Source: a virus (lineage: Duplodnaviria; Heunggongvirae; Uroviricota; Caudoviricetes). Taken from it: a stretch of DNA of 64,000 bases. The notes beneath the pieces are model-generated. The model was not told the origin of the DNA and made no database searches. It saw only the letters and a program-made list of their open reading frames with translations. The position numbers were made by a program, and so were the translations under genes. The stretch lies in IMG/VR virus record IMGVR_UViG_3300024273_002067; one strand, 5' to 3'. Positions 12,209 through 62,293 of this stretch are shown here, piece after piece (positions within the stretch are counted from its first letter, which is position 1; each line of letters begins with the position of its first letter).

Positions 12209-12403
12209 ACTTATAAAAGATGTGAATAATAATGGTAGAATTTATCCAAAAGATTTCTTTATTAGAGAGGTAAACAGAATGGAGAGAAGAAAAGATTTGG
12301 TTATAAGAAAACTTTTAATTGAAAAAAAGAATAAAATTGAACTTAATGGCGTCCTTCAAAGAGTGATAGATTTAAGTGTTAGGTAGTAAATAAATAAATA
12401 ATT

Positions 12404-18474: not shown

Positions 18475-20091
18475 ATGAAAAAGATTATTATCAACTTATC
18501 ACTATTAGCATTAGGACTAATAATGTCAAACACCTTAACTGCTCAAGCGTCATCTGTATGGGCTACTGTTGAAAGTTTAGAAGCACTAAAACAAGACAAA
18601 AACTTTCAAGACTTACAACAAGAATTAAACTTAAAGTACGAACAAGCTTTATCATCTTCAAAAAAAGAACATTTACAAAAAGTTTATGAATTTAAATGTG
18701 AATGTGATGAAGTAGACCTTTATACATCAATGCACAAAATTAATTCAGTTAACAAAATTGAATATGGACCTAAATACGAAAGCTTATCAGAACCAAATGA
18801 CTATAATTCATTAAGCACAAACTCAAGTTGGCATCTAGATTTAATTAATGCTCAATTAGCTTGGCAATTTACACATGGAAATATTGACATTGCTATATCA
18901 GACCAAAACTACTTTGTAGAACATGAAGAGCTAATTGGTGCAGTATCTTACCATGACACCACCAACACCTCTTCTCAGACTCACGGTACTGCAGTAGCTA
19001 TAACAGCTGCAGGAAACACAAATAATGGCGTAGGTCTTTCTAGCATTGGATACAACTCAACTCTTTCGCTATATAGAATGAACTATGGAGAAGTTTTATC
19101 TGCTTCATATAATGGAGCTAAAGTAATAAACTTAAGCTGGACTAGTGGATGTGCCTATAACCAATATTTACAAGATGCAATAAATGAAGTTTACGAAAAT
19201 GGAACATTTATAGTGGCCGCAGCTGGTAATGGCTCTACATGTGGAGGCTCAGAAGCATTAGTTTATCCCGCTGCTTATGACAACGTATTTGCTGTGTCTA
19301 GCGTTGGAGAAAATGATTCTCACGAAAACCCAAACGGAGCCACTCATCAACACAACAGTTCTGTTGACATAATGGCTCCTGGGTATGATGTTCCGATAAG
19401 TGCCGCTCCAGGATGGTACCTATATGGTAGTGGAACTTCTTATGCGTCTCCAATGGTTGCTGGAACTGTGGGGCTTATGATTTCAGTTAATCCAGACATT
19501 ACAAATGAAGAAATAGAAACAATATTATCTCAAACAGCTTGGAACATTGATGAAGCAAACCCTAGTTACATTGGAAAAATGGGCTCTGGTAGGCTAGATG
19601 CAGGATATGCTGTTGCTCAAGTTCAAAGAAATTTAGATATTGCTGCTGCAAATGATAATAATGATGATGGGAATAATGGTCACGGAAATGATGAAGATGG
19701 TGTAGATGACACCAACCCAGGAAATGGGCACGGAAATTCAAACCCAAGTTATGAACATGCAAAACCATCAAAAGGAGACAATGTACATGTAGGCGATGTC
19801 GTAGATAATCCAAATGGAGGTTCGAACAATGTGCACAAATCATTTTCCGATGCTAGTATCAATAGGATAGTTGTATTTCCAAACCCTTCTCATGGAGACT
19901 TTAGAATAAAGTGGAAAGGAATGGATATGGAGCTTTTATATATTTACAATTCCAACTTTCAGATAGTACAAAGACATAGAGTGGAAATGTATAACCAAAT
20001 TAGCCTAACGCTATTACAGCCTGGTAATTACGTGGCAATGTTAGTGGATAGCAATGGAACTAGATATAGAAAGAGAATAATAATTTTTTAA
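18475..20091 (+). CDS. Secreted subtilisin-like (S8) serine peptidase with a T9SS C-terminal sorting domain
   Basis: Signal peptide; GTSYASPMVAG Ser motif and HGT His motif; C-terminal FPNPS... beta-sandwich tail. Confidence 0.75.
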   Translation: MKKIIINLSLLALGLIMSNTLTAQASSVWATVESLEALKQDKNFQDLQQELNLKYEQALSSSKKEHLQKVYEFKCECDEVDLYTSMHKINSVNKIEYGPKYESLSEPNDYNSLSTNSSWHLDLINAQLAWQFTHGNIDIAISDQNYFVEHEELIGAVSYHDTTNTSSQTHGTAVAITAAGNTNNGVGLSSIGYNSTLSLYRMNYGEVLSASYNGAKVINLSWTSGCAYNQYLQDAINEVYENGTFIVAAAGNGSTCGGSEALVYPAAYDNVFAVSSVGENDSHENPNGATHQHNSSVDIMAPGYDVPISAAPGWYLYGSGTSYASPMVAGTVGLMISVNPDITNEEIETILSQTAWNIDEANPSYIGKMGSGRLDAGYAVAQVQRNLDIAAANDNNDDGNNGHGNDEDGVDDTNPGNGHGNSNPSYEHAKPSKGDNVHVGDVVDNPNGGSNNVHKSFSDASINRIVVFPNPSHGDFRIKWKGMDMELLYIYNSNFQIVQRHRVEMYNQISLTLLQPGNYVAMLVDSNGTRYRKRIIIF

Positions 20092-31576: not shown

Positions 31577-33427
31577 ATGGATTTAAAAAAAATATCAGAC
31601 GAAATAAAAGAAATTGTATCCAATAGGCAAAAGGAACTAAACCTCTCCTTTGTTGAAGACACTCATACTTATTTTATGAAAAACTTACAGGGGGAAATGG
31701 TGAGCAACTACCCTTCTGTGTCTACTGTATTAAAAAGTTTTTATACACCTTTTGACGCAGAGTCAACAAAAAGCTTTAAAAATTGTGGCGGAGACCCAGA
31801 AAAAGAAAAGTCGCTTCTGAAGGAGTGGAGTGATTCTGGAACTTACGCATCTCACATGGGCAGTAGAGTTCACTTTATCTTAGAAGACTATTTGGTTGAA
31901 TTATATGGAGCCTACAAAGAAGTTAGGTTACCAATCTTCGAGTGTGATGATGAACAAACTGAAAACGGAGATTCTATGATTGTTGCTGGCAAGTCTTTTT
32001 TAGACTTAATGCACTCAAGGGGAGCTGTTTTATTAGATACTGAAATGGTTTTAGGTAGTCCCGAATTGGGGTACACTGGTCAACCTGATAAAGTTTGGCT
32101 CATAGTTGGAAAAGATGGTAATCCTGGTATTTTAGTAACAGATTGGAAAGGTTTACCACTAGATACACCAATACTAACAGATAGCGGTTGGAAAAGTATG
32201 GGTACCCTAAATAAATCTGATAAGGTATATGATAAAGATGGTGACTTAGTTAATATCATGAATATATCACAAGTTAAAAATAAGAAGTGTCTTAAGATTA
32301 AATTTGATAATAATGAAGAGGTTGTTTCTGATTTTGAACATAGATGGTTAGTTTATACTGAGAGTAGTGGTGTTAAAAAAGAAAGAGTCATGACAACTCA
32401 AGAGATTAAAGATTATAATGATGGTTTAATTAAAAGAGATTCATATAAAATATTAAAGATTTCAAACCCAAAACCATTAAATAACCCTAAAACTGAATTA
32501 CCAATAGACCCTTATGTCTTAGGTATGTGGTTAGGTGATGGTCATAGTATTGATGCTAAGATAACTCAAGCTAATGAAGTTGTTTGGTCTGAAATTAAGA
32601 AAAGAGGTTATAAGGTTGGAAATGATGTATCACAAGGTGGTGCTGGTAAAGCAACAACTAGAACTATATTTGACTTACAAGGTAGGTTAAGAAAAACATC
32701 TTTATTAAGCAATAAACATATACCAGAAATTTACTTATCCAGTTCATATGAACAAAGGTTAGATTTACTTAGGGGGTTAATGGATAGTGACGGTACATAT
32801 AATAAAACTAGAAATAGTTTTGTAATGGAAACAACTAGAGAAAGTCAAGCTGATTATACTGCTGAAATAATATCTTCTTTAGGCATTAAACCTACTAAGA
32901 GTTCATTTTATAAGAAATTTAACGGTAAAATTATTAAATGCTACAGAACATCGTTCGTAACTAGTGAATTTAACCCATTCTTATCTAGAAATCAAGACCT
33001 AGTGTTAAACCTAAAGAAAGATAGAAGAACTTATAGAACTATAGTATCGGTCAAAGAGGTGGAATCAGTACCAACTAAGTGTATTGAAGTGGATAGTCCG
33101 TCTAGTACATTCTTATGTGGTAAATCGTTATTAGTAACACACAACACAAATAAGCCAAAAAACTTCGTTTCACAATTCTACACCAAACCTATGTTAACTC
33201 CCTTTACAGAGTATGACGACACATCTCTGGGTCACTATTATGTACAACTACCACTTTATGCAAAACTACTCTTAGATATGCTAAAGGGCTCTAAATATGA
33301 AAACATACCACTTCTTGGCGGTATAGTAGTATTGCTAAAAAAAGATGCAACATTTGAAGAGTATAGAATACCTAAGGAAGTTCTAACCATTGTAGACAAA
33401 ATGAATGTTTCACTATACTTAAAGTAA
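31577..33427 (+). CDS. PD-(D/E)XK (YqaJ/RecB/Cas4-like) nuclease interrupted by an intein
   Basis: Exteins carry GQPD, TDWK and QLPLY motifs; the insert 32150..33145 has two LAGLIDADG-like motifs and a terminal HN|T. Confidence 0.6.
   Translation: MDLKKISDEIKEIVSNRQKELNLSFVEDTHTYFMKNLQGEMVSNYPSVSTVLKSFYTPFDAESTKSFKNCGGDPEKEKSLLKEWSDSGTYASHMGSRVHFILEDYLVELYGAYKEVRLPIFECDDEQTENGDSMIVAGKSFLDLMHSRGAVLLDTEMVLGSPELGYTGQPDKVWLIVGKDGNPGILVTDWKGLPLDTPILTDSGWKSMGTLNKSDKVYDKDGDLVNIMNISQVKNKKCLKIKFDNNEEVVSDFEHRWLVYTESSGVKKERVMTTQEIKDYNDGLIKRDSYKILKISNPKPLNNPKTELPIDPYVLGMWLGDGHSIDAKITQANEVVWSEIKKRGYKVGNDVSQGGAGKATTRTIFDLQGRLRKTSLLSNKHIPEIYLSSSYEQRLDLLRGLMDSDGTYNKTRNSFVMETTRESQADYTAEIISSLGIKPTKSSFYKKFNGKIIKCYRTSFVTSEFNPFLSRNQDLVLNLKKDRRTYRTIVSVKEVESVPTKCIEVDSPSSTFLCGKSLLVTHNTNKPKNFVSQFYTKPMLTPFTEYDDTSLGHYYVQLPLYAKLLLDMLKGSKYENIPLLGGIVVLLKKDATFEEYRIPKEVLTIVDKMNVSLYLK
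32150..33145 (+). mobile_element. Intein with LAGLIDADG homing-endonuclease domain (~332 aa)
   Basis: N-terminal block A-like LPLDTPILTDSG, LGMWLGDGHS and LLRGLMDSDGT dodecapeptides, C-terminal LLVTHN followed by Thr. Confidence 0.6.
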
Positions 33428-36235: not shown

Positions 36236-36502
36236 TCAAACAAAATCATCATTTTCATCCAATTCCTCAGACTCTTCTACAGTATCACCACCTTCTGTTT
36301 CACCAGCTGAACTGGTTACATTATTAAAATATATATGTGTGTCGTTTTTACGCTCTTGCTTAGACGCATCACTTTGGCTTCCATAATAACCATAACCACC
36401 CTGATTCTTCTGAACGTCTGGACCTCCGCCTGGGGCCCTGTCAACCTCTGTAGATACTATTTCCGACAAAACTTCTCTTACTATATTTCTTATATCATCC
36501 AT
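36236..36502 (-). CDS. acidic Gly-rich small protein with N-terminal IVREVLSEIV motif
   Basis: Shares its N-terminal motif with 45573 and 50064. Confidence 0.45.
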   Translation of the reverse strand: MDDIRNIVREVLSEIVSTEVDRAPGGGPDVQKNQGGYGYYGSQSDASKQERKNDTHIYFNNVTSSAGETEGGDTVEESEELDENDDFV

Positions 36503-36552
36503 TTCAATATATAAATATGTATAAATATTATCTTACTGTAATATATTTGAAT

Positions 36553-38969: not shown

Positions 38970-39284
38970 ATGAGCAATAAAGAGAGAATAGAAATTGAAC
39001 CTGGTTTTTTTGTTGGTGAAACTGTAATATTGTTAGAAGAGACTGAATTTACAAAAGTTCACAAGATAAAAATTGGCACTGTGGGCGTAGTATCAAAAGA
39101 CGATAACTTAGAAACGCTGAAGGGGTGGAAAGCTATAAATGTAGAAGAAGGCTTCAAGAGCGAAATAGATAAAATGACTCCAGAAAAAATAGATGAGCTA
39201 TATAATCATTTATCTAGGATTGGAAAGATTAAAAATGCTGACAAGCTAGATGATTTAGCAAAAATTAAAACAAATAAACAATAA
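38970..39284 (+). CDS. hypothetical protein
   Basis: ORF. Confidence 0.4.
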   Translation: MSNKERIEIEPGFFVGETVILLEETEFTKVHKIKIGTVGVVSKDDNLETLKGWKAINVEEGFKSEIDKMTPEKIDELYNHLSRIGKIKNADKLDDLAKIKTNKQ

Positions 39285-39847
39285 TGAAAGAAACACTGCC
39301 TTTGGCTAAATGTAGAACTCTGTTCTTTGGGAAAGACGTTGATATGGAATCTATAGAATCTATATCTGAAAATATTATAAAGATAAATGAAGATGATAGT
39401 TTTTTAGAAAAGCTTTATCCTGTATATGGATTGAAATATGAGCGTAAACCTATAAAAATAATGATTGACAGTTATGGCGGATACGTTTACCAGTGTATGG
39501 GATTGATAGGTATTATGGAAAGTTCAAAAACAGAAATACACACTTATGCCACTGGGGCTGCGATGTCTTGTGGTTTCATAATGTTAATATGTGGACATAA
39601 AAGATTTGCATACAAACACGCTACACCTATGTATCATCAAGTTTCGACTGGCTTCTGGGGTAAAACTCAAGATATGGAAGAGAGTTATAAGGAAACAAAA
39701 AGACTTCAGGGCAAATTTGAATCATTAACTTTAGAGAAAACAAAAATATCTAAATCAAAATTAAAAGAAATTTTAAAGACAAAACAGGATTGGTATATGG
39801 ATGCGGAAGAGGCTGTGTCCTTTGGTGTTGTGGATAAAATAATATAG
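39284..39847 (+). CDS. ClpP-family (S14) serine peptidase, short divergent paralogue
   Basis: GAAMSCG (Ser) and YHQVSTG (His) motifs. Confidence 0.65.
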   Translation: MKETLPLAKCRTLFFGKDVDMESIESISENIIKINEDDSFLEKLYPVYGLKYERKPIKIMIDSYGGYVYQCMGLIGIMESSKTEIHTYATGAAMSCGFIMLICGHKRFAYKHATPMYHQVSTGFWGKTQDMEESYKETKRLQGKFESLTLEKTKISKSKLKEILKTKQDWYMDAEEAVSFGVVDKII

Positions 39848-40648: not shown

Positions 40649-41209
40649 ATGATTAAAGAAATAGTAAAATATGGTGATGATATACTTAGAATTGTTTGTG
40701 AGAAATACGCTTCTGGTGCTATTGACATCAATGAATTAATTTCAAACCTAAAAGACACACTTAACTCAGTTAAAAATGGAGCAGGATTAGCTTCTCCACA
40801 AATAGGCATTAATAATAGAGTTTTTGTAACCAGAAACTATAGAGACGACAAGCCAGATGAAATGCTTACATTCATAAATCCAGAAATAATAACAAAGTCT
40901 AAAGAACAAGTTAAGGTTCCTGATGGCTGCTTAAGCATACCCAATATACACTCTGAAACAGAAAGACATTCTTACATAACAGTATCTTACCTGGATGAGG
41001 GGCTAAATAGAGTGGAAGAAGAGTTAGAGGGATTTCAATCTGTTGTGTTTCAACATGAACTAGACCACTTAAATGGCGTTTTGTTTTTAGACTTGTTAAG
41101 TCAGGAAGAAAAAGAAAAGATTGAAGAGTTTATTTTGAGACAGAAAAGTGAGCCTAACATATTTTATATTGAAGGAAAAATAATTGAAATGAGTTTAAAA
41201 AATGGCTAA
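40649..41209 (+). CDS. def: Peptide deformylase
   Basis: GAGLASPQIG, GCLSIP, HELDHLNG motifs. Confidence 0.85.
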   Translation: MIKEIVKYGDDILRIVCEKYASGAIDINELISNLKDTLNSVKNGAGLASPQIGINNRVFVTRNYRDDKPDEMLTFINPEIITKSKEQVKVPDGCLSIPNIHSETERHSYITVSYLDEGLNRVEEELEGFQSVVFQHELDHLNGVLFLDLLSQEEKEKIEEFILRQKSEPNIFYIEGKIIEMSLKNG

Positions 41210-41423
41210 AAAAATAATGTTTGAAGAAGTGATGCGTGAAGAGTCTAGAATTTTTAGAGTTAATATGGGAACTATACCTCCAGGTGAGGTTGAAGCTTTT
41301 TTGGCCAAAATTAAATCAGAATATAAGAAAAGTCCCATCATGCATTTCCAACAAAACTTATACAAAAGAACCCTCATTACAGAGAAGGTAGAAAAATTCC
41401 CACCATTGCCATATGAAAGATAG
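41202..41423 (+). CDS. hypothetical protein
   Basis: ORF. Confidence 0.35.
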   Translation: MAKKIMFEEVMREESRIFRVNMGTIPPGEVEAFLAKIKSEYKKSPIMHFQQNLYKRTLITEKVEKFPPLPYER

Positions 41424-43142: not shown

Positions 43143-45443
43143 TTACTTTTTCTTTTTGTAAGGCTTCTTTTTAGAAGTTTTAGAATTCTTTATTATTTCT
43201 TCACACTCCTTTAAGGTTAAATCTTTAGGCTCATATGATTGTGGTATTTTGAAATTTTTCTTTCCCTTCTTAATGTAAGCACCGTACTTACCTTTTAAGA
43301 CAAATATATCTTTACTTTCAAAATCTTTTATAACTCTATTCTTTTGTTCCTCTAAAGACTCTTTAATTAAAGAAACTGCTTCATCATAATTTATTGTTTC
43401 TGGCTTATATTCTTCTGTTATAGATGCATAAACTTTATCCAACCTAACATATGGGCCAAACTTTCCTATTGCAACAGATAGCTCAGAACCTTCATACTCC
43501 CCCAAAACTCTAGGCCAATTCAATAACTCTATTGCTTGTTCTAAAGTTATCGAGCCAAACTCTATAGTCTTATCTATTTTAGCAAATTTTGGCTTTTCCT
43601 CATCGTCTTTATCTCCCATCTGTACCATTGGTCCATATCTGCCTATTTTAGCATATACAACCCTAAGAGTCCCTGGGTGTGTCCCCAACTCTCTAATCCC
43701 AACTTTACCTTCTTCTTCATTGGCTTTTTTAACTTTTTCAGAGAATGGTTCATAGAAATCTCTTATAACTGAAACCCACTCAGCATTACCTTTAGCTATT
43801 TCATCAAAATTACCTTCTACGGTTGCTGTGAAATTGTAATCCATAACCTTATCAAATGTACCCAGAAGATATTCAGTAACTATCATTCCCATTTCAGAAG
43901 GTACAAATTTCTTTTTTTCTCCTCCATAGTTTTCGACACTTGTTTCTTCAGTAATTGAATCATTTTTTAAAAAAAGTTTATCTACACTTTTTTCTGACGG
44001 CTCCACATCTCTCAATTCAACGTATTCTCTTTTTTGTATTGTAGAGATTATACTGGCATATGTCGAAGGTCTTCCTATGCCTAACTCTTCTAACTTTTTT
44101 ACTATAGAAGACTCAGAATATCTAGTTGGAGGCCTTTTAAATGTCTGAAAGGCGTTTATTTCTACACAATTAATTAAATCATCTTTAATTAAGTTAGGTA
44201 ACAATCCAGACTCATCTTCTCCACCCTTATCTTCTGGTGTATACAATTTGAGAAAACCATCAAAATTTACAACTTCACCTTTTGTGACAAATTTTTCTTT
44301 TGAATTTGACAACTTAGTCTTTATAGTTGTTCTCTCTATTTTGGCATCTGACATTTGTGATGCCATTGTACGCTTCCATATTAAATTATATAGTTTTTTA
44401 CAATCTTCTGAATCTCCAACAATATCTACCGATGGGTTTACTGGCCTTACTGCTTCGTGAGCCTCTTGTGCCCCTTTAGACTTTCCTTTGTACTTTTTTC
44501 TATTTGAATATTCACTACCAAATTTATTTATTATTTCACTTTCAATATCATTAAGAGAGTCTTCAGAAAGAGTAACAGAATCAGTTCTCATATAGGTAAT
44601 ATGACCGCCCTCATAAAGTGACTGTGCTGCGCTCATTGTTCTATTTAAAGAAAAGCCCATTCTAGAGCTGGCGGCTTGCTGTAAAGTGGAAGTTGTAAAT
44701 GGGGCGGGTGAAGTCTTTTTTCCAGGCTTTTTTTCTACTGAGTCTACACTAAACTTAGCTACCTGACACTTTTCCAAAAAAGATTTTGCGTCTTTTTTTT
44801 CTGAAAATCTTTTATCAAGAACTCCATTAAATTCACTTCCCTTAAAATCCATTAAAGATGTAACCTTGAAATCTGAACTTGTTGTAAATTTTTTAATTTC
44901 ATTCTCTCTTTCTACCAATATTCTTAATGCGACAGATTGAACTCTACCACCACTAAGACCAGGTTTAACTTTTTTCCATAACAAAGGAGATAAGTCAAAG
45001 CCAACAAGACGGTCTAGAACACGCCTAGCCTGTTGTGCATTAACCATATTCATATCTAAATCTACTGGGTTTGATATTGCTTCCAGTATTGCCTTTTTAG
45101 TTATTTCAGTAAAAATAATTCTCCTAGTTTTCGAGTCAGGCAACTTGAGACACTCTTTGATGTGCCAAGATATTGCAGTACCCTCTCTATCATCATCTCC
45201 TGCTAGCCAAACGACTTCTGCCTTATCAGCTAATTTTTTAATTCCTTTTACAACATCCTTTTTGTCTGATGATATAATGTATTTAGGAGTGAAATCATTT
45301 TCTTTGTCTATACCTTTGTTTCCCTTATCTAAGTCTCTAATGTGACCATAACTGGCTACCACTTTATACTCATTACCTAAAAAGCCTTGTATTTTATTTA
45401 TCTTACCTGGCGACTCTACTATTACTAAATTTTTTGCTGACAT
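43143..45443 (-). CDS. topA: DNA topoisomerase I (type IA)
   Basis: Toprim N-terminus VIVESPGK, catalytic Tyr region, C-terminal Zn-ribbon-less basic tail. Confidence 0.9.
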   Translation of the reverse strand: MSAKNLVIVESPGKINKIQGFLGNEYKVVASYGHIRDLDKGNKGIDKENDFTPKYIISSDKKDVVKGIKKLADKAEVVWLAGDDDREGTAISWHIKECLKLPDSKTRRIIFTEITKKAILEAISNPVDLDMNMVNAQQARRVLDRLVGFDLSPLLWKKVKPGLSGGRVQSVALRILVERENEIKKFTTSSDFKVTSLMDFKGSEFNGVLDKRFSEKKDAKSFLEKCQVAKFSVDSVEKKPGKKTSPAPFTTSTLQQAASSRMGFSLNRTMSAAQSLYEGGHITYMRTDSVTLSEDSLNDIESEIINKFGSEYSNRKKYKGKSKGAQEAHEAVRPVNPSVDIVGDSEDCKKLYNLIWKRTMASQMSDAKIERTTIKTKLSNSKEKFVTKGEVVNFDGFLKLYTPEDKGGEDESGLLPNLIKDDLINCVEINAFQTFKRPPTRYSESSIVKKLEELGIGRPSTYASIISTIQKREYVELRDVEPSEKSVDKLFLKNDSITEETSVENYGGEKKKFVPSEMGMIVTEYLLGTFDKVMDYNFTATVEGNFDEIAKGNAEWVSVIRDFYEPFSEKVKKANEEEGKVGIRELGTHPGTLRVVYAKIGRYGPMVQMGDKDDEEKPKFAKIDKTIEFGSITLEQAIELLNWPRVLGEYEGSELSVAIGKFGPYVRLDKVYASITEEYKPETINYDEAVSLIKESLEEQKNRVIKDFESKDIFVLKGKYGAYIKKGKKNFKIPQSYEPKDLTLKECEEIIKNSKTSKKKPYKKKK

Positions 45444-45572
45444 CTATTAATTATCAATGATTTAAAGACAAATATAACATTTTTTAATTAAACATAAAAG
45501 AAAACTTTACATAAAACAAGTCATTATTATAATAAAACTTAATATTTATATCTGAAACGTATTTTTAATATA

Positions 45573-45983
45573 ATGAAAGAAAAATCAGTCAGACTGTTAG
45601 TGAGGGAGGTTATTAGTGAGATTGCTATGTCAATGGGTGGTTCTGGGTGGGACAGCAACAATGATATCCAGTCATTTCATGGATATCCTTCTGGGTATGG
45701 TCAATTTCCTTATTTATATACAGACATACCTGAAATGTTGCCCGGTGCAGAGGAGATAAATAAAAACAGTGAGCATATAAAAATAAAAAAATACGAAAAC
45801 AACAATGAAGTATATGACTTTCCTTTTGAGAATTTTAAAAAAGGATTTGAAATTGAAAAATCAGAACTAGAAAAACAAAAACAACTGTTGAATGTTTTTG
45901 ACATAGCAAAAAAAGTTATAGACAATTTAAGAAAAGACAAAAATTTTTATCAAGATGAGAATGCTGGAGATACACCGCAGTAA
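45573..45983 (+). CDS. small protein with N-terminal LVREVISEIAMSMGG motif
   Basis: Shares its N-terminal motif with 36236 and 50064. Confidence 0.45.
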   Translation: MKEKSVRLLVREVISEIAMSMGGSGWDSNNDIQSFHGYPSGYGQFPYLYTDIPEMLPGAEEINKNSEHIKIKKYENNNEVYDFPFENFKKGFEIEKSELEKQKQLLNVFDIAKKVIDNLRKDKNFYQDENAGDTPQ

Positions 45984-47368: not shown

Positions 47369-47851
47369 CTAGAATGGCAAGTCATCATCCGTACCACCTA
47401 CAGCAGCTTGTGGTGCGGCAACTTGTGGCGTAACGGCTGGTGCAGCAGCTTGTGGTGCAGCAGCTTGTGGCGCAGCAGCTTGTGGTGCAGCAGCTTGTGG
47501 TGCAGCAGCTTGTGCGTTCTCATTTCTTCTTCCGTCTGTTAGGATTCTGAAATCTCTAGCATTTATATCTGTATATCTAATTTTACTACCATCTCTTTCA
47601 ACGGTTCTATACTTTAATTCTCCTTCAACAAAAACTAAACTACCTTTTTGCAAGATTCTCTGAGCATTTTCTGCTAACTTTCCAAACATTGTGATATTAT
47701 GCCAAGAAGTCTCTTCTTGCTTTACACCACTTTTGTCAGTCCAGTTTTTGTTTGTGCCTACTGAGATTCTAGCCAATGTAGTTCCATTGTCTAACGTTTT
47801 TACATCTGGGTCCGCCCCCAGTCTTCCTAATACTTCTACTTTGTTTACCAT
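47369..47851 (-). CDS. ssb: Single-stranded DNA-binding protein (bacterial SSB type)
   Basis: OB fold, AAPQA x6 linker, acidic DDDLPF tail. Confidence 0.9.
   Translation of the reverse strand: MVNKVEVLGRLGADPDVKTLDNGTTLARISVGTNKNWTDKSGVKQEETSWHNITMFGKLAENAQRILQKGSLVFVEGELKYRTVERDGSKIRYTDINARDFRILTDGRRNENAQAAAPQAAAPQAAAPQAAAPQAAAPAVTPQVAAPQAAVGGTDDDLPF
47400..47520. repeat. 15-nt tandem repeat (GCAGCTTGTGGTGCA x ~7) encoding the SSB linker
   Basis: Read directly. Confidence 0.8.
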
Positions 47852-49929: not shown

Positions 49930-50063
49930 AATTATTTAATATTTATTTTTTTAAAAATCAATGTATTTTAGTTATCTGTGAAATTAATAAGTTTAATGTT
50001 ATAAACAAAAAAATATATGTTTTTTTTTAATATTTATAGCAAAGTACTTTAATAAAAAAAATT

Positions 50064-52889
50064 ATGCATAATAATAAAAAGCTTTATGAAGAAGTTTCAA
50101 GAATGATTGAACTATTAGGAGGAGAGCAAAAAGATTCAAAAACACTTAAAGAGTCTTTTGACAATAAAGTGATATCTAAAAGAAATTTAACAGAATCTAT
50201 AGATGACATAGACTTCACTAACTTATTTGATGATGACTTAAACGATGAGGAATTAGACAAAAAAATAGATAGCAAATTTTCGTCACTTTCAGCCAATGAT
50301 GACATTTCTTTACTGGGCAAGTTAGCTCTGGTTACGGGTTCAATTAACAAATTACAAGCTGCGATGTTTGATTTGCAAAAAAAGGATTTGTTGACTCTAA
50401 AAGACTTAAGTTCTGAAAGAATTAATAGAGATGACGATAAAGGTGCTGTAGTTCATAAAGGAAGAAAAATTTTATACCCTGGGCAATCTGTTGCAGATTT
50501 TAGAGACATGATGAACAAGGGAAGGCTTATGTTAAAGGTTGGAAATGAATCAGAAAATCTAGACGGAGACAATGTAGGCAAGGTATTTAAGTGGCTAGGA
50601 GGAACTCAAGGAACAAAAACTTTACATAATATTGGATTTGGAAGCGATGGTAAATTGAGTAAAAAAGGAAATGCTGAACTAAACTTTCTAGCAAGAATTC
50701 TTTCTAATCAGCCAAAAGATGATTCAGAACAGAAAATAATAGAAACATTTGGAGATGCTGCAAAAAATAATGCACTAAAAATATTACTTGACCTATATAA
50801 AGTTGCAGGTACAAACATTCTACTTCCACTCCTAAACATGGAGCCAACACCAGAAAATTTAGATTCTATTTCAGATGGAGTTACTAAGGCGTTGAATAAC
50901 TTAGCTGGCATTAGTGGAGATAAGCTAGAGGCTAAAGAAACTAGCTGGGACTCTTCGAGAAATGTTGGGTCTTGGATTTTACAAGTTGCAAAGAATTATG
51001 CTAAAAATGCAATTAAAAAAAATACTGAATACTTACCAAATATAAATTCTGCTAATCAATTTTTAGAAGATATGCTAAGTAGGGAGGGAGTCATTTCTTT
51101 TTTATCAAGAAAAGAACCTTCACATGACAACTATGCTGACTCAGTAGAAAAAGTGGGTGAGAAATATTTATACAAATATTCAAAAATTGATGATGCTATT
51201 GATGACTTAAGAAATTCAACTAAAGTTAAAAATCATCATTTAATGCCATATAATTTAGAAATATCTAAATACAAAGATTTATTTTCACTAGAAAGAAAGG
51301 CGCCTATATCAATGAGTCCTGAAATGGAAAAAGAAATAGGACAAAAAGTTGCTGATGAAGAAAGTTTACTAAACTTAGATAGTGGTGATGAAATGAAAAT
51401 AAGAAACATATTGTCTAAAGTTGTTGATTTTATGACTTTAGATTCTAAAAAATATGGAATCAAACAAGCTACTCACGACCCTAGTTATTTATCTATTTCT
51501 GACAAAAAGGAAATACAATCAGGTAGAGATGAGTCTTTAATTAGAAAGAGAAAAGAGCTAGCAAAAGAAAATGCTATAAACTTCATGTATAACTTTTTAT
51601 TGTCTGCAGTTGGTAACACTAAGTATGGTACAGATATAGGCATTTCTGGTAAGGTGAGTCCAGAAATTATGTCTGACTGGATAGAGTCTCAAAGAAAGAC
51701 AATGTTGACCAAGCTTATAAAAATAGAAAAAGCAAACAATCCCGATATAGATAGTGAGAAAATAAAGGAAAGAGCTGAAAAGCTAGGACTTTTAACTAAA
51801 GGAGGTAAATTTGCTCAATCATTTAAAGGTGGTTTAAAGGATTACTTTTCTAACAACAAAGAAGAATTGTCTAAAATAATGAAACTAGTTTCTTCAACAT
51901 CTCCTGAAGGATACGAGGTAGAGTCTGATATCGAAACTATATTCGAACAGAAAGTTAGGGCTAGAATTCAAGAAATAATTAGAGAGTCATTTGTCATAAA
52001 AGAAGAAGAGTACGAAGACAATAATTTAGAAGAAGATGAGTTAGATAAATTGATAAATGCATTTGGAGACAGGTTTTCTAAAGCAACATCTTACAATAGA
52101 GCTGGGAATGGTGGATTAGACAAAGAAATTAAAAGCATTGTAGATGGAAATCTATCAAAGTGGCACTTTGAAAATAGTGAACAAGGTCAACATAACTACA
52201 TCAGCTCAGTACTAGCTTCTATGTATAACACATTAAGCAGTTCACAACAAAGAAATGTCTTAAAACACATTTTTCTTTCTTTCTTCCCAAGAGGTGAGGA
52301 AAGTAGAATAGTTACACAACTAATAAACAAACAAGTACCAGGCTCTTTAATGAGCAATAGACCAGAAATGTGGGATGTTATTATATCTTCTGAAAATGAT
52401 GGAACTCTATTGTTACAAAAAGCCTTAGAAACATATGAGCCTAAAGGCTCATTATTTAAGTACTTATTGAGAAGAATTCTTAACGAAGCTAGAAATAAGT
52501 CCAGAAAAGAAGATGCCTCATTACATAAAGGTGAAAGGACTTATCACAGTACTTCTGTAGATTCTATTGACGCACCATTAGGAAGCGATGAAGACGGGAG
52601 TAGAGCATATGAACTAGAGGCAGAAGATTCTTCTGATGATAAAATAGGTGAATTAAGAGACAGAATTTCAAACTATCTATATAAAGCAGAAGATGCTGGA
52701 TTACTTTCTGGTAGTGAGTTAAATTTATTGAAATCAATCAGTCAATTTGGTTCCGAAGTAATGGATAACGATAAAATTAACTATGAACTATTGGGAACAA
52801 GAATAGGAAAAAGCGCTTCTAATGTTGGAACTATGATGTCCAACATAGTAAAGAAGATGAAGCAAGGTAGAGAAAAGGGAATTGTATAA
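50064..52889 (+). CDS. 941-aa protein with N-terminal LYEEVSRMIELLGG motif and C-terminal sigma-region-4-like HTH
   Basis: N-terminal motif shared with 36236 and 45573; C-terminal YELLGTRIGKSASNVGTMMSNIVKKMK. Confidence 0.45.
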   Translation: MHNNKKLYEEVSRMIELLGGEQKDSKTLKESFDNKVISKRNLTESIDDIDFTNLFDDDLNDEELDKKIDSKFSSLSANDDISLLGKLALVTGSINKLQAAMFDLQKKDLLTLKDLSSERINRDDDKGAVVHKGRKILYPGQSVADFRDMMNKGRLMLKVGNESENLDGDNVGKVFKWLGGTQGTKTLHNIGFGSDGKLSKKGNAELNFLARILSNQPKDDSEQKIIETFGDAAKNNALKILLDLYKVAGTNILLPLLNMEPTPENLDSISDGVTKALNNLAGISGDKLEAKETSWDSSRNVGSWILQVAKNYAKNAIKKNTEYLPNINSANQFLEDMLSREGVISFLSRKEPSHDNYADSVEKVGEKYLYKYSKIDDAIDDLRNSTKVKNHHLMPYNLEISKYKDLFSLERKAPISMSPEMEKEIGQKVADEESLLNLDSGDEMKIRNILSKVVDFMTLDSKKYGIKQATHDPSYLSISDKKEIQSGRDESLIRKRKELAKENAINFMYNFLLSAVGNTKYGTDIGISGKVSPEIMSDWIESQRKTMLTKLIKIEKANNPDIDSEKIKERAEKLGLLTKGGKFAQSFKGGLKDYFSNNKEELSKIMKLVSSTSPEGYEVESDIETIFEQKVRARIQEIIRESFVIKEEEYEDNNLEEDELDKLINAFGDRFSKATSYNRAGNGGLDKEIKSIVDGNLSKWHFENSEQGQHNYISSVLASMYNTLSSSQQRNVLKHIFLSFFPRGEESRIVTQLINKQVPGSLMSNRPEMWDVIISSENDGTLLLQKALETYEPKGSLFKYLLRRILNEARNKSRKEDASLHKGERTYHSTSVDSIDAPLGSDEDGSRAYELEAEDSSDDKIGELRDRISNYLYKAEDAGLLSGSELNLLKSISQFGSEVMDNDKINYELLGTRIGKSASNVGTMMSNIVKKMKQGREKGIV

Positions 52890-53770: not shown

Positions 53771-53854
53771 TTAATATAATTCAATATAAGAAAAATATAG
53801 ATAAAGTCAACATAGATTATAAAAAATGTTTTATATTTATTAATAAATCTAATT

Positions 53855-54676
53855 ATGAAAGAAAGTAAATCACATAACTTATTTTTAAAAAACTTTTTAA
53901 CAGAGAGTTATAAATCTGTAGATGAAAAAGTTAATGAAATTAAAGAGAAGATAAAAGAGTTAGAATCAGAAGAGGAAGTTGCAATAAAAAATTGGGGTGG
54001 AACTGATGGAGACGAAGATGTAGAATTTAGTCCTGAAGAGTTTTTTGGAGCAGCAGGAGATGCTGCTGAAGAAGATATAAAGTCAGACCCAACAATGGGA
54101 GGAAGTGATGAGTTTGCATCCTTTGGAAGTATGGAAGACCCCAGAATGCTAAAGAGCTTAACTGAGGAAGAGTTTAGGCTTATGATTAGAAAGACAATAA
54201 GCGAGTCAGGATACCCTGCTTTGGATGGTGGTGAAAATGCAGACGGTGGAGAAGCTGAAAATGATAATAATGATGATGCTACAGTAGCAGAATCTGAAGA
54301 TAACTTAGAAGAAGAAAGAATAGCTAACACAGAAGCAAGTAAAGATGTTAATGAGTTGAGAAATTTCATAGGTAGTCACATATACGGAGAAGACTTAGGT
54401 GATTTGGGTAAAATGTATGTTGCTTACTCGTATGGAGAGCAATTCCCAGCTTATTTGCACTATAAAGACAAATGGTACCACAATACTGATTATTATATGT
54501 TAGAAGACGGTAAAATTAATAAACCTACAGAAAAGCACAAAAAAGACATGAAGCCTTCAAAAGAAACTCATGGAATGTCTACAATAGGTCTACAGTCTTT
54601 AATTAGAGCATTTAAGAAAAAGAATCAAATTGGTGAAAATAACCATACAGATGTTGAGCCTGGTGAAAAGAATTAA
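53855..54676 (+). CDS. highly acidic protein
   Basis: D/E/G-rich ORF. Confidence 0.4.
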   Translation: MKESKSHNLFLKNFLTESYKSVDEKVNEIKEKIKELESEEEVAIKNWGGTDGDEDVEFSPEEFFGAAGDAAEEDIKSDPTMGGSDEFASFGSMEDPRMLKSLTEEEFRLMIRKTISESGYPALDGGENADGGEAENDNNDDATVAESEDNLEEERIANTEASKDVNELRNFIGSHIYGEDLGDLGKMYVAYSYGEQFPAYLHYKDKWYHNTDYYMLEDGKINKPTEKHKKDMKPSKETHGMSTIGLQSLIRAFKKKNQIGENNHTDVEPGEKN

Positions 54677-55203: not shown

Positions 55204-56178
55204 TTATTCTATAATAATTTTTTTACTATAAAGTATATTTTTTGAAGTAGCCACAACCAAGTAGGTGCCTGCAGATAAGTGGTCAGTTTTATCAATGGCA
55301 ATCAAATGCTCTCTACAATCTATAACTTCTATTTTAGAGTAAACTTCATTTCCTCTTACATCTCTAAGAACAACTAAAATTTCTTGTCTACCTATACAAT
55401 TAACATCCTTAAATAGAATATTAATACAATCACCTCTCTTTAATGGAGTTGGGTATATGTCCATTACACCATCTCCATTGGGAGCATGTTCAACAGGAAT
55501 AATATTAAACGTCTCTTGCTCACCATTAAAATCTACCTGCGTAAGCCTATAGTAAGACAATCCTCTTAGTGGGTTACTGTCAATTTCAAAGTAGTTAATT
55601 ATATTGACACTGTTGCCTGCTCCTTTTGTTTCAATTGTAATTTTCCAATCTATTGCATCTTGACTTTTCTCTACAATGAAGTAATCGTTATTAATCTCAG
55701 AAGCAGTTGACCATGATATCTCAACAATGTTTTCATTTACAACAGCATTAAATTCTATTAATTTAATGGGTAAAAATCCGCCATTACTTACAGTGGCTGG
55801 GCCTGTTAGAGGTGGGTCGTTCCCGCTCCACCAAGTATTAGAGCCAATATTTAATCTAGAACCTGAGTTGCCCCCAGTTAGTGTCCCTCCAGCATATACC
55901 TGAACTACACCATCACTATCTAAATTTATTTTTCTTCCATTACTAAATAACATCGTTCCATAAACCTCAATCCTCATGTTAACATAGGTAGGACTATTTA
56001 AATCAATTACAACAGACATTGAAGCGGGTATTCGCATTGTATCTCCTGTATTTGCAGGTACATAACCACAATCCCACGAAGCAGCACTACTCCAGTCACC
56101 ACCATCGTCAATTAAAGTACATATAGCAGAACTAGTAAGTGTAAGTGATAATAAAAATAGTAATAGTAAGTTTTTCAT
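55204..56178 (-). CDS. Secreted protein with a T9SS C-terminal sorting domain (start re-called to MKNLLLL)
   Basis: Signal peptide; C-terminal LSYYRLTQVDFNGEQETF motif. Confidence 0.55.
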   Translation of the reverse strand: MKNLLLLFLLSLTLTSSAICTLIDDGGDWSSAASWDCGYVPANTGDTMRIPASMSVVIDLNSPTYVNMRIEVYGTMLFSNGRKINLDSDGVVQVYAGGTLTGGNSGSRLNIGSNTWWSGNDPPLTGPATVSNGGFLPIKLIEFNAVVNENIVEISWSTASEINNDYFIVEKSQDAIDWKITIETKGAGNSVNIINYFEIDSNPLRGLSYYRLTQVDFNGEQETFNIIPVEHAPNGDGVMDIYPTPLKRGDCINILFKDVNCIGRQEILVVLRDVRGNEVYSKIEVIDCREHLIAIDKTDHLSAGTYLVVATSKNILYSKKIIIE

Positions 56179-56236: not shown

Positions 56237-56422
56237 TTAATCTTCATCATTTAGATTTTGTATATATTTAGCCTTATCAATTTCCGACCTTCTTTTTACT
56301 GATTTTTTTACAAACTCTTTTCTCTCTCTAATATCATTAAGCATCTTAGTTTTGAAAACTTTATTTTTTAAATTTTTCAAAGCCTGATTTATATTTCCTT
56401 TAGCGACTTTTATTTTAAGCAT
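56237..56422 (-). CDS. rpsU: Ribosomal protein bS21
   Basis: MLKIKV...ALKN.K.K....ML.DIRERKEFVKKSVKRR aligns with bacterial S21, closest to the Bacteroidetes type. Confidence 0.8.
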   Translation of the reverse strand: MLKIKVAKGNINQALKNLKNKVFKTKMLNDIRERKEFVKKSVKRRSEIDKAKYIQNLNDED

Positions 56423-59454: not shown

Positions 59455-60207
59455 TTATTTCTTAGTTTTAGAAGAACCTTTCTTTGTTGGAGGCTCCAAA
59501 CCAACCACATGGTCAATAACACCATATTCTAAAGCTTCAACTGCTGTCATCCAATAATCTCTATCACAATCTGCATGTATAGTATCAAATTTTTGACCAG
59601 TGTGATGAGCTATAATGTCATACAATTCTTTCTTAAGCAAATTAATCTGAGTAGCAGTTATTTCAATGTCTGAAGCTTGTGATTGGCCAATACCACCCAA
59701 AGGCTGGTGTTGCATTGAGCGTGAGTGCTTTAGAGCATATCTTTTCCCCTTCTCTCCTGCAGTGAGCAAAACAAAAGCCATAGAAGCACACAACCCCATA
59801 TTATAAGTTCCCACACTTGGTTTTACAGCTTGCATAGTGTCATATATTCCAAGGCCAGCATATACAGAGCCACCAGGGCTATTAATGTACATTTTCACAT
59901 CTTTTTTAGCATCTACGGACTCAAGATATAAAAGTTGAGCGTTAATAACATTTGCAACTTGGTCTGTAACTGGCATTCCCATGTATATGATTCTATCCAT
60001 CATCAATCTAGAGAAAACATCCATAGCAACAGCATTCATCTGTCTTTCTTCAATAATGTTTGGCGTCATTCCTACTGGACTCGTTTCCAAAATAGAAACT
60101 GGATTGATTACGCTTCTCATTTGAAAGTTTTCATAATCGTGAAGAGTTAAACTAGATACTCCATGGTCTCTAGCAAACAGTCTAAAATCTTTCTTTATAT
60201 TATTCAT
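59455..60207 (-). CDS. clpP: ATP-dependent Clp protease proteolytic subunit ClpP (start re-called to MNNIKK)
   Basis: Ser GLCASMA and His MQHQPLGG motifs; the track ORF overlaps the upstream gene stop by 95 nt, and the ATG at 60207 lies 1 nt after its stop. Confidence 0.85.
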   Translation of the reverse strand: MNNIKKDFRLFARDHGVSSLTLHDYENFQMRSVINPVSILETSPVGMTPNIIEERQMNAVAMDVFSRLMMDRIIYMGMPVTDQVANVINAQLLYLESVDAKKDVKMYINSPGGSVYAGLGIYDTMQAVKPSVGTYNMGLCASMAFVLLTAGEKGKRYALKHSRSMQHQPLGGIGQSQASDIEITATQINLLKKELYDIIAHHTGQKFDTIHADCDRDYWMTAVEALEYGVIDHVVGLEPPTKKGSSKTKK

Positions 60208-60208
60208 A

Positions 60209-62293
60209 TTATTTTTTATTTTTTTTTGTGACAACTTTTTTAGCAACTTTTTTAACAACGACCTCATCAGATTTAGAGATGTAGTCAACAGACAATTTAT
60301 CACCCATTTTTATTTCACCTCTCAATACGGCTTGTGATGCTGGGTTTTGTATGTACTTAGTCACAGCTCTTATCACGGGTCTTGCACCAAATTCCTCACT
60401 GTAGCTCTCTTTTAATAAGAACTCTTTCATTCTTTTAGTTACAGTAAGTTCGTACTCTCCATTCTCATACATTCTTTTTGTTAAAGAATTTACGTGTATA
60501 TCTACAATTTTAGAAATGTCTTCTTCCTTTAAAGTATTAAAGACAACTTTCTCATCAATTCTATTGATAAATTCTGGCCTGAACACTTTCTTTAGAGACT
60601 TTGCAATAACATCATTAACATTCATGTCATCAGTTGTACCAGAATCAAAGCCAACAGGAGTTACATCTAGCTCTTTAACTCCAATGTTAGAAGTCATTAT
60701 TATGATAGTATTTTTGAAGTTAATTTCTCTACCTAAACTATCAGTCAACATTCCTTCATCTAGTATTTGCAACAAAACATTACTAACATCTCTATGAGCC
60801 TTTTCTATTTCATCAAAAAGAATAACGCTATAAGGATTGTTTTTGACAGCGTCTGCCAACTGACCACCTTCGTCATGACCAACATACCCAGGAGGTGAAC
60901 CTATCATTCTAGAAACCGAATGAGGCTCCATATATTCTGACATATCTAACCTAATTAAAGACTCATCATTACCAAACATATATTCAGCCAAAGCTTTAGT
61001 TAATTCAGTTTTACCTACACCAGTTCTTCCCAAAAACAAAAATGATGCAATAGGTCTATTTGGATTGTGAAATCCTGCTGCAGAGCGTTGAACAGCTTCA
61101 GACACTTTCTGTACAGCCTCATCTTGGCCAATTACTCTAGCTTTAATTTCTTCAGGCATTTTTATCAACCTCAAACCTTCATCATCAGTAAGCTTTTTAA
61201 CGGGTATACCAGTCATTCTAGCGACAACTCTAGCTATCTCTTCAAGTAAAACATCAACTTTATTTTCTTTACTATCCCTGTCCCAGCTAAACTTATCCAA
61301 TTCTAATTGCTTCTCCATCTTTCTAATGGCATCTCTTGATTCCGCTGCCATTTCAAACTCTTGCTTTTTAATGTGTGAAGACTTAAGTTCTACTTGAGAC
61401 TCTATATCTCTTTCTAGTTTAAGAATTTCTTCAGGAACATTTATATTGTCTATGTGAACTCTAGAGCCAACTTCGTCCATGATGTCTATTGCCTTATCGG
61501 GAAACTGCCTTTCTGTAATATACCTTTCAGCATATGTTATACAAGCATCTATAGCCTCTTCATTAAAAGAAACGTTGTGAAAGTTTTCATAGTGTTGCTT
61601 TATATTCATAAGAATTTCCTTAGTCTCCTCAGTAGTTGGAGGAGCAACCTTGACCTTTTGAAACCTTCTTTCTAAAGCCCCATCTTTTTCAATAGTCTTC
61701 TTGTACTCATCTATAGTGGTTGCCCCAATACACTGAATAGCACCCCTAGATAGAGCTGGCTTAATCATGTTTGCAACATCTAATGAACCTTGAGCATTAC
61801 CAGTCCCTATTATAGTATGTATTTCGTCAATAAAAACAATTACATCTTGATTCTCTTCTAACTCCTCTATTATGGCCTTCATTCTTTCTTCAAATTGACC
61901 TCTATACTTTGTGCCAGCAACAATAGATGACATCTCTAGTTCAACTATTCTTTTATCATGCAAAATTCTGCTAACTTCTTTATTTACAATTTTCATTGCT
62001 ATACCCTCAGCTATCGCCGTCTTACCAACTCCTGGGTCTCCTATTAATACAGGATTATTCTTTTTTCTTCGACTCAATATTTGTATTAATCTATCAATCT
62101 CTTCCTCCCTTCCTATAACAGGGTCTAGCTGATTATTCATGGCTAATAGCGTTATATCTTTACCAAAAGAATCTAGCGCTGGTGTCTTTGATTCCTTTCC
62201 ATCTTTTCTTTTAATTCTCTTTCCATCATTAGGCTCTTTCCTTCCACCCAATGATTCAAATTCACTTTCATCTGAAGACATATTGATATTCAT
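60209..62293 (-). CDS. Clp/Hsp100 double-AAA+ unfoldase (ClpC/ClpA-like, no N-domain)
   Basis: Two Walker A motifs (GDPGVGKTA and GRTGVGKTE), Clp signature regions, arginine fingers. Confidence 0.85.
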   Translation of the reverse strand: MNINMSSDESEFESLGGRKEPNDGKRIKRKDGKESKTPALDSFGKDITLLAMNNQLDPVIGREEEIDRLIQILSRRKKNNPVLIGDPGVGKTAIAEGIAMKIVNKEVSRILHDKRIVELEMSSIVAGTKYRGQFEERMKAIIEELEENQDVIVFIDEIHTIIGTGNAQGSLDVANMIKPALSRGAIQCIGATTIDEYKKTIEKDGALERRFQKVKVAPPTTEETKEILMNIKQHYENFHNVSFNEEAIDACITYAERYITERQFPDKAIDIMDEVGSRVHIDNINVPEEILKLERDIESQVELKSSHIKKQEFEMAAESRDAIRKMEKQLELDKFSWDRDSKENKVDVLLEEIARVVARMTGIPVKKLTDDEGLRLIKMPEEIKARVIGQDEAVQKVSEAVQRSAAGFHNPNRPIASFLFLGRTGVGKTELTKALAEYMFGNDESLIRLDMSEYMEPHSVSRMIGSPPGYVGHDEGGQLADAVKNNPYSVILFDEIEKAHRDVSNVLLQILDEGMLTDSLGREINFKNTIIIMTSNIGVKELDVTPVGFDSGTTDDMNVNDVIAKSLKKVFRPEFINRIDEKVVFNTLKEEDISKIVDIHVNSLTKRMYENGEYELTVTKRMKEFLLKESYSEEFGARPVIRAVTKYIQNPASQAVLRGEIKMGDKLSVDYISKSDEVVVKKVAKKVVTKKNKK

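Follow-up and report, generated by a model that had tools for sequence, protein, structure and literature searches.

We analysed a 64,000-nucleotide (nt) stretch of tailed-phage DNA (Caudoviricetes; IMG/VR record IMGVR_UViG_3300024273_002067), here called the window, and describe in it a short amphipathic helix that opens two small acidic proteins of 88 and 136 amino acids (aa), recurs at a module junction inside a 273-aa protein and stands at the N-terminus of proteins with unrelated C-terminal parts in other phages. We consider a head-targeting (capsid-targeting) propeptide to be the best explanation of this motif, with a probability of roughly 45%, because its N-terminal position, portability, amphipathic helix, L/I-x-Glu ending, head-gene company, T4-type portal and late-type upstream box agree with it. 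A first-pass annotation of the window had proposed such a propeptide, and this core of the proposal gains support from the same lines of evidence, whereas its inclusion of a 941-aa protein, its shared GG and its choice of a ClpP-family peptidase as processing enzyme had to be dropped.

In the mechanism that we propose, a portable N-terminal amphipathic helix of ~13–17 residues with the consensus φ-R-x-φ-φ-R-E/K-φ-φ-S/x-E (φ, hydrophobic; x, any residue) would mark late proteins for entry into the prohead as it assembles, in a myovirus whose portal is of the T4 type. The helix would dock onto the scaffold or core, and the head-maturation protease would probably remove it, or cut beside it, after the terminal L/I-x-Glu, with cuts predicted after Glu16 and Glu14 in the motif peptides MKEKSVRLLVREVISEIAMSMGG and MDDIRNIVREVLSEIVSTEV, respectively. 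The cargo would then end up in the capsid and perhaps in the host. Encoded in the window, it would include the two small acidic proteins, while in the 273-aa protein the motif lies where a variable acidic N-terminal module meets a DUF8033-like domain.

A conserved helix at the N-termini of two small acidic proteins

The three open reading frames (ORFs) named in the first-pass annotation, with their N-terminal sequences, are exactly as it reported them, and profile searches and hhalign uphold the common motif for the 88-aa and 136-aa proteins; the third protein, of 941 aa, is taken up below. The 88-aa protein (36236..36502, − strand) consists of the motif, a conserved GGGPDVQKNQSGYGY segment and an acidic tail. 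The 136-aa protein (45573..45983, + strand) begins with the motif helix and ends in a small helical domain, with a disordered Gly/aromatic segment between them. Both proteins are acidic (isoelectric points 4.06 and 5.00, respectively), as had been described, and the glycine richness ascribed to both applies to the 88-aa protein alone (11.4% versus 6.6%). Scans of the two proteins against Pfam, PHROGs and NCBIfam gave no family match.

Motif copy 1, IRNIVREVLSEIV, occupies residues 4–16 of the 88-aa protein (36455..36493, − strand) and ends in L-S-E; copy 2, VRLLVREVISEIA, occupies residues 6–18 of the 136-aa protein (45588..45626, + strand) and ends in I-S-E. The consensus common to the two N-termini is φR-x-φ-φ-R-E-V-φ-S-E-I-φ. 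A profile of 16 sequences, all from the 136-aa family, was searched against 1240 six-frame segments and found its best foreign match in the 88-aa N-terminus (20.6 bits, E 1.6e-5). In the opposite direction, from the 88-aa family to the 136-aa protein, the search gave E 0.007, and hhalign aligned the two families with E 2.1e-5 over 32 columns. This alignment runs on past the motif through the GG and an SGYG, so that the earlier description of the carriers as otherwise unrelated holds in part. Copies 1 and 2 differ in their codons, for example in a serine encoded by TCG in one and AGT in the other, which belong to different Ser codon families; selection therefore acts on the peptide. The arginine codons of the motif are all AGR. 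Shuffle tests with regular expressions returned 0 of 2000 and carry little weight, as the expressions were written after the motif had been seen and are thus post hoc.

Across the 30 clusters of the 136-aa family, R7, R11, E16, G22 and G23 are invariant. The 88-aa family comprises 23 clusters, is confined to this phage lineage and conserves the second half of the motif (EIVSTEV) better than the first. The motif helix is strongly amphipathic (hydrophobic moment, muH, 0.35–0.65), and an AlphaFold2 (AF2) model of the 136-aa protein, of low confidence overall (pLDDT 59.9), predicts a helix at residues 3–20 followed by disorder at 18–52.

Separately, the 88-aa orthologue in a 232-kb relative (contig L003, 1571–2176, − strand) is 201 aa long and carries an extra ~110 C-terminal residues that contain DGRHR. 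A ParB-like (ParB/Srx) assignment of this extension, suggested by DGRHR, was rejected when Pfam and NCBIfam gave nothing.

The motif as an add-on to a DUF8033-like core

The window holds another copy of the motif, an internal one, that the first-pass annotation had missed and that makes a better third member than the 941-aa protein. The acidic 273-aa protein (53855..54676, + strand) opens with a coiled-coil/acidic module, which is followed by the motif helix and then by a disordered acidic linker that leads to a DUF8033-like domain at the C-terminus. Motif copy 3, FRLMIRKTISESG, spans residues 107–119 (54173..54211, + strand) and ends in I-S-E at the junction of the two modules. The AF2 model predicts a helix at residues 104–117 that stops at the glutamate; confidence is low between ~118 and ~150, and at ~155–260 a domain follows with pLDDT 94–98. 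A fold search with this model in BFVD matched DUF8033 proteins, and Foldseek against the PDB found no significant match.

An exhaustive HMMER search showed that the C-terminal domain (~residues 145–273) is a widespread core of ~100 aa. Basal members of ~100 aa start directly with this core, whereas a marine subfamily of ~150 aa carries 25–30 additional residues in front, made up of the motif and a short acidic linker, so that the motif stands at the extreme N-terminus (examples are MNSEQKIRNIVRNILSESIFE, MENNEEIRKIVRGILKNY and MEHEELRKIIKEVIIESRIFEE). In 12 of the 13 short (~150-aa) sequences with the add-on, which were retrieved through their C-terminal domain and not through the motif, [LIMF]-x-E marks the helix end or lies close to it. 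A few proteins, the 273-aa protein among them, have yet another module fused ahead of the motif, which thereby becomes internal. Since the motif precedes a self-contained DUF8033-like core and L/I/M/F-x-Glu is kept in sequences found independently of it, we read the motif as a portable add-on in front of unrelated cores. In the 273-aa family member of the 232-kb relative (L003 18350–19354, + strand), the N-terminal module also shows a tandem duplication of ~50 residues (EEFSPEEFFGDAGDAAEEDIKNDPEWGGKYGFTAFGTTEDPRMLKKLTKEN).

Position of the motif and its head-gene company in other phages

We scanned IMG/VR with the motif back-translated into a degenerate DNA pattern that held no positional information. 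The 24 matches comprised 3 from the window's own lineage, 3 outside plausible ORFs, 1 MIRE repeat and 17 in foreign ORFs. In 15 of these 17, the motif begins 3–9 codons after the ATG, and these carriers form eight sequence groups that differ in their C-terminal parts; one group has a BspA-type leucine-rich repeat domain. As the pattern was blind to position, chance falls far short of explaining this N-terminal bias.

Nine of the 17 foreign matches lie within a few kb of homologues of T4-type gp20, gp21, gp22 or gp23, and a tenth lies beside TerL. The typical carrier in these head loci is a small ORF between the portal gene and the protease or scaffold gene, and the neighbouring protease is a Peptidase_S77 of the T4 gp21 family (1.2e-25; phrog_207; tblastn to T4-like gp21). 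A cultured phage, vB_FspM_immuto of Flavobacterium, also has such a small protein: its homologue gp072 (73 aa; YP_010114611.1) is encoded between gp20 and gp21 (YP_010114613.1). The first 17 residues of the small head-module family, A7, align with residues 1–17 of the 136-aa family (hhalign E 9.1e-6) and less strongly with the 88-aa family (E 0.004). Outside the motif, the families with C-terminal parts A4, A5, A1/A8 and A7 are unrelated to one another; hhalign between C-terminal parts of carrier families gave E 0.19–0.44. Searchable literature yielded no description of the motif or of DUF8033 function.

Two proteins with late-type boxes in the 83-kb relative, to the right of the window (L038 3919–5640 and 8076–8603), have N-termini of a looser but similar style (MNKKDLKKLLKEAIAKRLMEKK… and MKITRKELKAIISEEASKYIK…), and the second matches a PHROG head scaffolding family weakly (E 0.0015); they may be more distant carriers.

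A T4-portal myovirus lineage with late-type upstream boxes

Among cultured phages, megablast with 20 kb of the window returned zero matches, tblastn with the 136-aa protein gave two non-significant matches (E 0.9), in a Synechococcus phage, and tblastn with the 941-aa protein gave nothing. IMG/VR holds uncultured relatives, among them an 83-kb contig (L001; protein identity ~75–85%) and one of 232,514 bp (L003, IMGVR_UViG_3300028416_000004; ~60%); judged by these relatives, the window is part of a marine jumbo phage. Type IX secretion system (T9SS) sorting domains in window proteins point to a host in the Bacteroidota.

A walk from the right flank of the window reached two sigma-70 genes and NrdAB; the two sigma-70 genes are complete and lie just right of the window (L032 18431–20293). 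A T4-type TerL and a portal adjoin these sigma-70 genes in remoter relatives with the same synteny. One protein-database match to that portal (P0102; Portal_T4) proved in the IMG/VR scan to be the portal of the 232-kb relative, at 100% identity, and is 80% identical to the portals of the 83-kb and 79-kb relatives. Near it are genes for TerL, fibre-like proteins, tail sheath (6e-79), tail tube (8e-28) and an adaptor-like protein. From the portal, TerL, sheath and tube of its relatives, we take the window's lineage to be one of myoviruses that have a contractile tail and a T4-type portal.

The motif genes share promoter-like boxes with the structural genes of this lineage. The box AATATTTATA lies 27 nt upstream of the 88-aa gene (36520..36529, − strand), 32 nt upstream of the 136-aa gene (45541..45550, + strand) and 35 nt upstream of the 941-aa gene (50029..50038, + strand), where L001 and L003 share it. 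The 273-aa gene has TATATTTAT 23 nt ahead of it (53832..53840, + strand), and there the box is conserved in L001, L003 and L032. The L003 orthologue of the 136-aa gene has its box, TAATATTTATG, ~27 nt before the second ATG, which on this ground is taken as the true start. In the 232-kb relative, a TATTTAT box stands 11–48 nt upstream of every structural gene seen (TerL, portal, sheath, tube, adaptor-like protein, fibres and holin) and also precedes the orthologues of the 88-aa, 941-aa and 273-aa genes, whereas a Bacteroidota-type TAnnTTTG stands before the genes for topoisomerase, SSB, a PcfJ-like protein, NrdA, one sigma factor and DNA polymerase III. The window shows the same split into two classes: the late-type class, with the pattern [AT]ATATTTAT[AT], stands before structural and other presumably late genes, and TAnnTTTG (Bacteroidota sigma-A type) stands before replication genes, for example in the region 45411–45418, upstream of the topoisomerase gene. 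By their boxes, the motif genes are thus placed with the structural genes, apart from the replication genes.

Comparison with known capsid-targeting sequences

In T4, N-terminal propeptides of 10–19 residues give unrelated internal proteins affinity for the scaffolding core (PMC9026906, PMC3012670), and gp21 cleaves after L/I-x-E (PMC9026906). The motif resembles the capsid-targeting sequences (CTS) of IPI, IPII, IPIII and Alt in being a short amphipathic N-terminal peptide with unrelated mature parts behind it and an L/I-x-Glu end (PMC9026906, PMC3012670). It lies at residues 4–16 and 6–18 of the two small proteins and is N-terminal in the ~150-aa homologues of the 273-aa protein, and its three copies in the window end in L-S-E, I-S-E and I-S-E, at which cleavage is predicted. 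As in T4, the carrier genes are scattered outside the head module of a phage with a T4-type portal.

In other marine T4-like phages, the motif heads a small protein between gp20 and gp21 or gp22, which is the position of T4 gp67 and gp68. The 88-aa protein is laid out like gp67, which has ~80 aa, N-terminal amphipathic helices with L/I-x-E and a very acidic tail. These likenesses have limits: hhalign shows no relationship between gp68 and the small head-module family (E 0.3), the carriers in the window lie outside the head module, and the small protein that P-SSM4 encodes at that position lacks the motif. A second parallel is found in the giant myoviruses phiKZ, 201phi2-1 and SPN3US, in which a distant homologue of gp21 trims many head proteins after x-x-Glu and so removes N-terminal propeptides that are often long (PMC9026906). 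The internal motif at the module junction of the 273-aa protein fits this pattern; however, the sites in those phages are S/A/G-x-E with little further context, whereas the motif described here is a 13-residue helix. The lineages also differ, with the host here placed in the Bacteroidota by its T9SS sorting domains.

Evidence that weighs against a propeptide

Several results weigh against this reading. The motif has no sequence similarity to the T4 peptides MKTYQEFIAE or MELITELFDE, from which it differs in its two invariant arginines four residues apart, or to the N-termini of T4 gp67, gp68 and Alt (NC_000866), and its cargo is acidic where that of T4 is basic. A search by tblastn and hidden Markov models (HMMs) for an S77 protease, a scaffold and a gp23/major capsid gene gave short fragments only, in the window and in ~0.6 Mb of redundant lineage loci that cover ~85 kb of the 232-kb relative; a portal-alignment scan with two N-terminal peptides yielded a sister group alone. 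Seven of the 17 foreign viral matches are not near recognisable head genes, and three members of the 88-aa family depart from the motif in its first half, two by loss of four residues and one by divergence. The TATTTAT class also takes in ClpA, DnaJ, NUDIX and other non-structural genes, so that late-type expression is not specific for virion proteins.

The peptide pattern also occurs in cellular proteins. Among the matches listed from a metagenome scan, ~66 of 120 are an internal helix of a single ~386-aa cellular family, which we read as an HD-domain dGTPase-type enzyme; a high-GC soil family is also prominent among them, as are at least six more N-terminal families. Because ordinary internal helices of cellular proteins match it, the peptide pattern alone is not diagnostic, and the signal is the position of the motif in viral proteins.

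The 941-aa protein and a docking helix as alternative

The annotation had counted the 941-aa protein (50064–52889), whose N-terminus reads LYEEVSRMIELLGG, as a third motif carrier. The motif profile gives no match there, and a profile of the 941-aa N-terminus in turn misses the 88-aa and 136-aa proteins; by profile, its N-terminal peptide LYEEVSRMIELL (50082..50117, + strand) is a different conserved peptide. Its terminal glutamate is lost in a remoter orthologue (RMLQL). We also rejected this N-terminus as a lookalike of the T4 CTS (Y-x-E-φ...φ-x-E), as it has no profile link to the motif and the Glu is not conserved.

A weak motif-like helix, VRARIQEIIRESF, does lie inside the 941-aa protein (residues 631–643; 51954..51992, + strand), just ahead of an acidic stretch and the sigma-like C-terminal region; the profile of the 273-aa family picks up orthologous copies only (E 0.26–0.7), and we treat it as a lead, not a finding. 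The sigma-like assignment itself comes from matches below the model cutoffs, to TIGR02937 at residues 780–934 (E 1.4e-6; 28 bits, cutoff 42.9) and to Pfam Sigma70_r2 at residues 295–321 (18.5 bits, cutoff 24), and a sequence search of the PDB found no relative.

The genes for the 941-aa protein (50064–52889) and the DUF8033-like 273-aa protein (53855–54676) are conserved neighbours. In a 336-kb relative (L227 6387–10453), a 1204-aa gene in the syntenic position of the 941-aa gene ends where a 150-aa gene with the motif and a DUF8033-like domain begins, and the long protein P0206 (1196 aa) has a weak Sigma70_r2 match and a DUF8033-like domain as its C-terminus, with no BLASTP link to the 941-aa protein (best E 0.028). 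This arrangement suggests that 941-aa-like and DUF8033-like genes form a functional pair.

Such pairing bears on the explanation that competes best with a propeptide, although we hold it to be unlikely: the motif would be an uncleaved docking or oligomerisation helix through which late proteins bind one partner (a chaperone, for example, or the 941-aa protein, or else the surface of a membrane or of DNA), with no connection to capsid entry. In relatives, the DUF8033-like gene neighbours the gene for a 941-aa-like protein, is translationally coupled to it or is fused with it, and by reading of the sequence a motif-like helix stands at the junction of the P0206 fusion. The strong amphipathicity, the many non-structural genes in the late-box class and the foreign viral matches away from head genes are likewise what a docking helix would predict. 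It leaves unexplained, however, the extreme N-terminal preference, the recurrent place between the portal and S77 protease or scaffold genes, and the near-universal L/I/M-x-Glu at the helix end in sequences found independently of the motif.

Common descent, Clp recognition and export as further alternatives

Shared ancestry or convergence without a common function is an improbable explanation. The 88-aa and 136-aa proteins would then be old paralogues, with which their alignment beyond the motif agrees, and the other occurrences would be a generic Arg/Glu-rich helix at AT-rich 5′ gene ends, in line with the cellular enzymes whose internal helices match the pattern and with the exclusive use of AGR codons, typical of AT-rich genomes. 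Neither part of this account sits well with the unrelated C-terminal parts of the carriers, the addition of the motif onto a DUF8033-like core or its N-terminal place in the foreign viral ORFs of eight groups, and within families the motif is kept across identity ranges of 50–100%, with R7, R11 and E16 of the 136-aa family fixed.

The window encodes Clp components to which the motif might relate in two ways. The annotation had nominated the ClpP-family peptidase at 39284..39847 (+ strand; Pfam CLP_protease 1.8e-27) as the processing enzyme, for which it turned out to be a poor candidate. Like the ClpP-related head-maturation proteases of phages, it has the ClpP fold signature; its best PHROG matches are head-maturation protease families, and by reading of the sequence it keeps Ser, His and Asp at the canonical ClpP triad positions. 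However, it scores below the cutoffs of both the NCBIfam head-maturation model NF045542 (68.6 bits, cutoff 120) and the ClpP subfamily model (83.4, cutoff 249). It sits in a non-structural operon that begins at a rhomboid protease gene and also holds small ORFs and a peptide deformylase gene, behind an upstream box of the early, host type, TATATTTG, that is conserved in L003. It does not lie between portal and capsid genes, the portal being ~60 kb away in a relative. The window also encodes a canonical ClpP (59455–60267, − strand) beside a ClpA/B-like AAA+ ATPase (60209–62293, − strand). Given the scores, the operon company, the early-type box and this pair, the protein is more likely part of a phage Clp system than a prohead protease.

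The genes of the canonical ClpP and the ClpA/B-like ATPase overlap by 59 nt in different frames, and a Tara contig (L032 6682–9519) has one fused 945-aa product; the fusion may stem from a frameshift in one of the assemblies, or the two forms, fused and split, may both be real.

The other way is that the motif itself serves as a degron or adaptor tag for the phage Clp machinery, that is, for the ClpA-like ATPase, the canonical ClpP and the divergent ClpP-like protein. It is established that Clp can recognise N-terminal degrons, the machinery is encoded in the window, including the second ClpP-like protein with its triad residues, and the ClpA gene has the same TATTTAT box as the motif genes. 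We nevertheless judge this reading less probable still, since the motif recurs beside the S77 protease in T4-like head modules and not beside Clp genes, the ClpP-like operon has a conserved early-type box, and the peptide has no link to known ClpA, ClpX or ClpS recognition rules.

A double-glycine-type leader cut after GG for export is very improbable: GG is invariant in both small families and its distance from the motif is fixed in the 136-aa family (E-I-A-M-x-φ-G-G), but motif and GG are 5 residues apart in one of these families and 10 apart in the other, the orthologues of the 941-aa protein read ELTENN and ELFESD where GG stands, the DUF8033-like and head-module carriers have no GG, and the window proteins scanned (part of the ORFs) included neither a C39 peptidase nor an ABC exporter. 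The GG is not the common feature for which it had been taken.

Implications of a head-targeting motif

In T4, a ten-residue N-terminal tag decides capsid loading and injection and is the basis of T4 protein-delivery vectors, and the injected proteins include anti-restriction and host-takeover factors. We know of no equivalent tag for the abundant, mostly uncultured marine myoviruses with T4-type portals. Capsid-targeting propeptides as such are already known; what would be new, conditional on experimental proof, is the sequence of this one, the families that carry it and the group of phages. A broader claim would be that a large group of these marine phages uses the φR-x-φφRE-φφ-x-E helix as a general packaging tag that can be recognised from sequence; this claim is tentative and on present evidence somewhat doubtful.

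If that claim is true, every protein that has the helix, be it at the start or between two modules, would enter the prohead core, be cleaved behind the glutamate and reach the host together with the DNA. The injected set, or ejectome, could then be listed from a genome alone and predicted directly from metagenomic sequence; among the products of the window it would contain small acidic proteins, the DUF8033-like domain and possibly a processed sigma-like factor. The motif would also give a first functional handle on several hypothetical small acidic families and a DUF8033 subfamily, and would supply a second, sequence-distinct targeting peptide for engineering. Should it be merely a common docking helix, it would still group several orphan families of late phage proteins.

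Other features of the window

Two fragments in the window recall head genes. A 73-aa gp20-like ORF at 41202–41423 (+ strand) is 38% identical over 56 residues to portal residues 252–307 of immuto gp20 (tblastn E 8e-6); at its position the 232-kb relative has no ORF, and it looks like a stray portal fragment or mini-gene. The best match to the S77 prohead-protease HMM across the ~0.6 Mb of lineage loci, a weak one (E 0.0017), is a stop-to-stop segment at 12180–12383 (+ strand; …NNNGRIYPKDFFIREVNRMERRK…), which may be a gene remnant, as there is no ATG at its start. Comparable gp23-like fragments adjoin the portal gene in sister phages (L041–L048, and L089 17693–18067).

The window has ~30% G+C and is densely packed with short ORFs. 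By profile or sequence, its genes include a type IA topoisomerase (read from sequence), a bacterial-type SSB, the ClpA-like ATPase, two ClpP paralogues, DnaJ and ribosomal protein S21. Host-like genes are those for S21 (56237–56422, − strand), a full acyl-CoA dehydrogenase (9490–11157, + strand), a T9SS-tailed subtilase (18475–20091, + strand) and a G8-domain protein with the same Por_Secre_tail (55204–56178, − strand). A 616-aa ORF at 31577–33427 (+ strand) contains a Hom_end/LAGLIDADG segment, probably an intein. The thymidylate synthase gene is intact in the window (4571–5638) and split by a DUF7487 insertion in some field variants (L029 7220–9591). In the SSB gene (47369–47851), the linker (47398–47523, − strand) is a run of PQAAA repeats followed by a bacterial-type acidic tip, DDDLPF.

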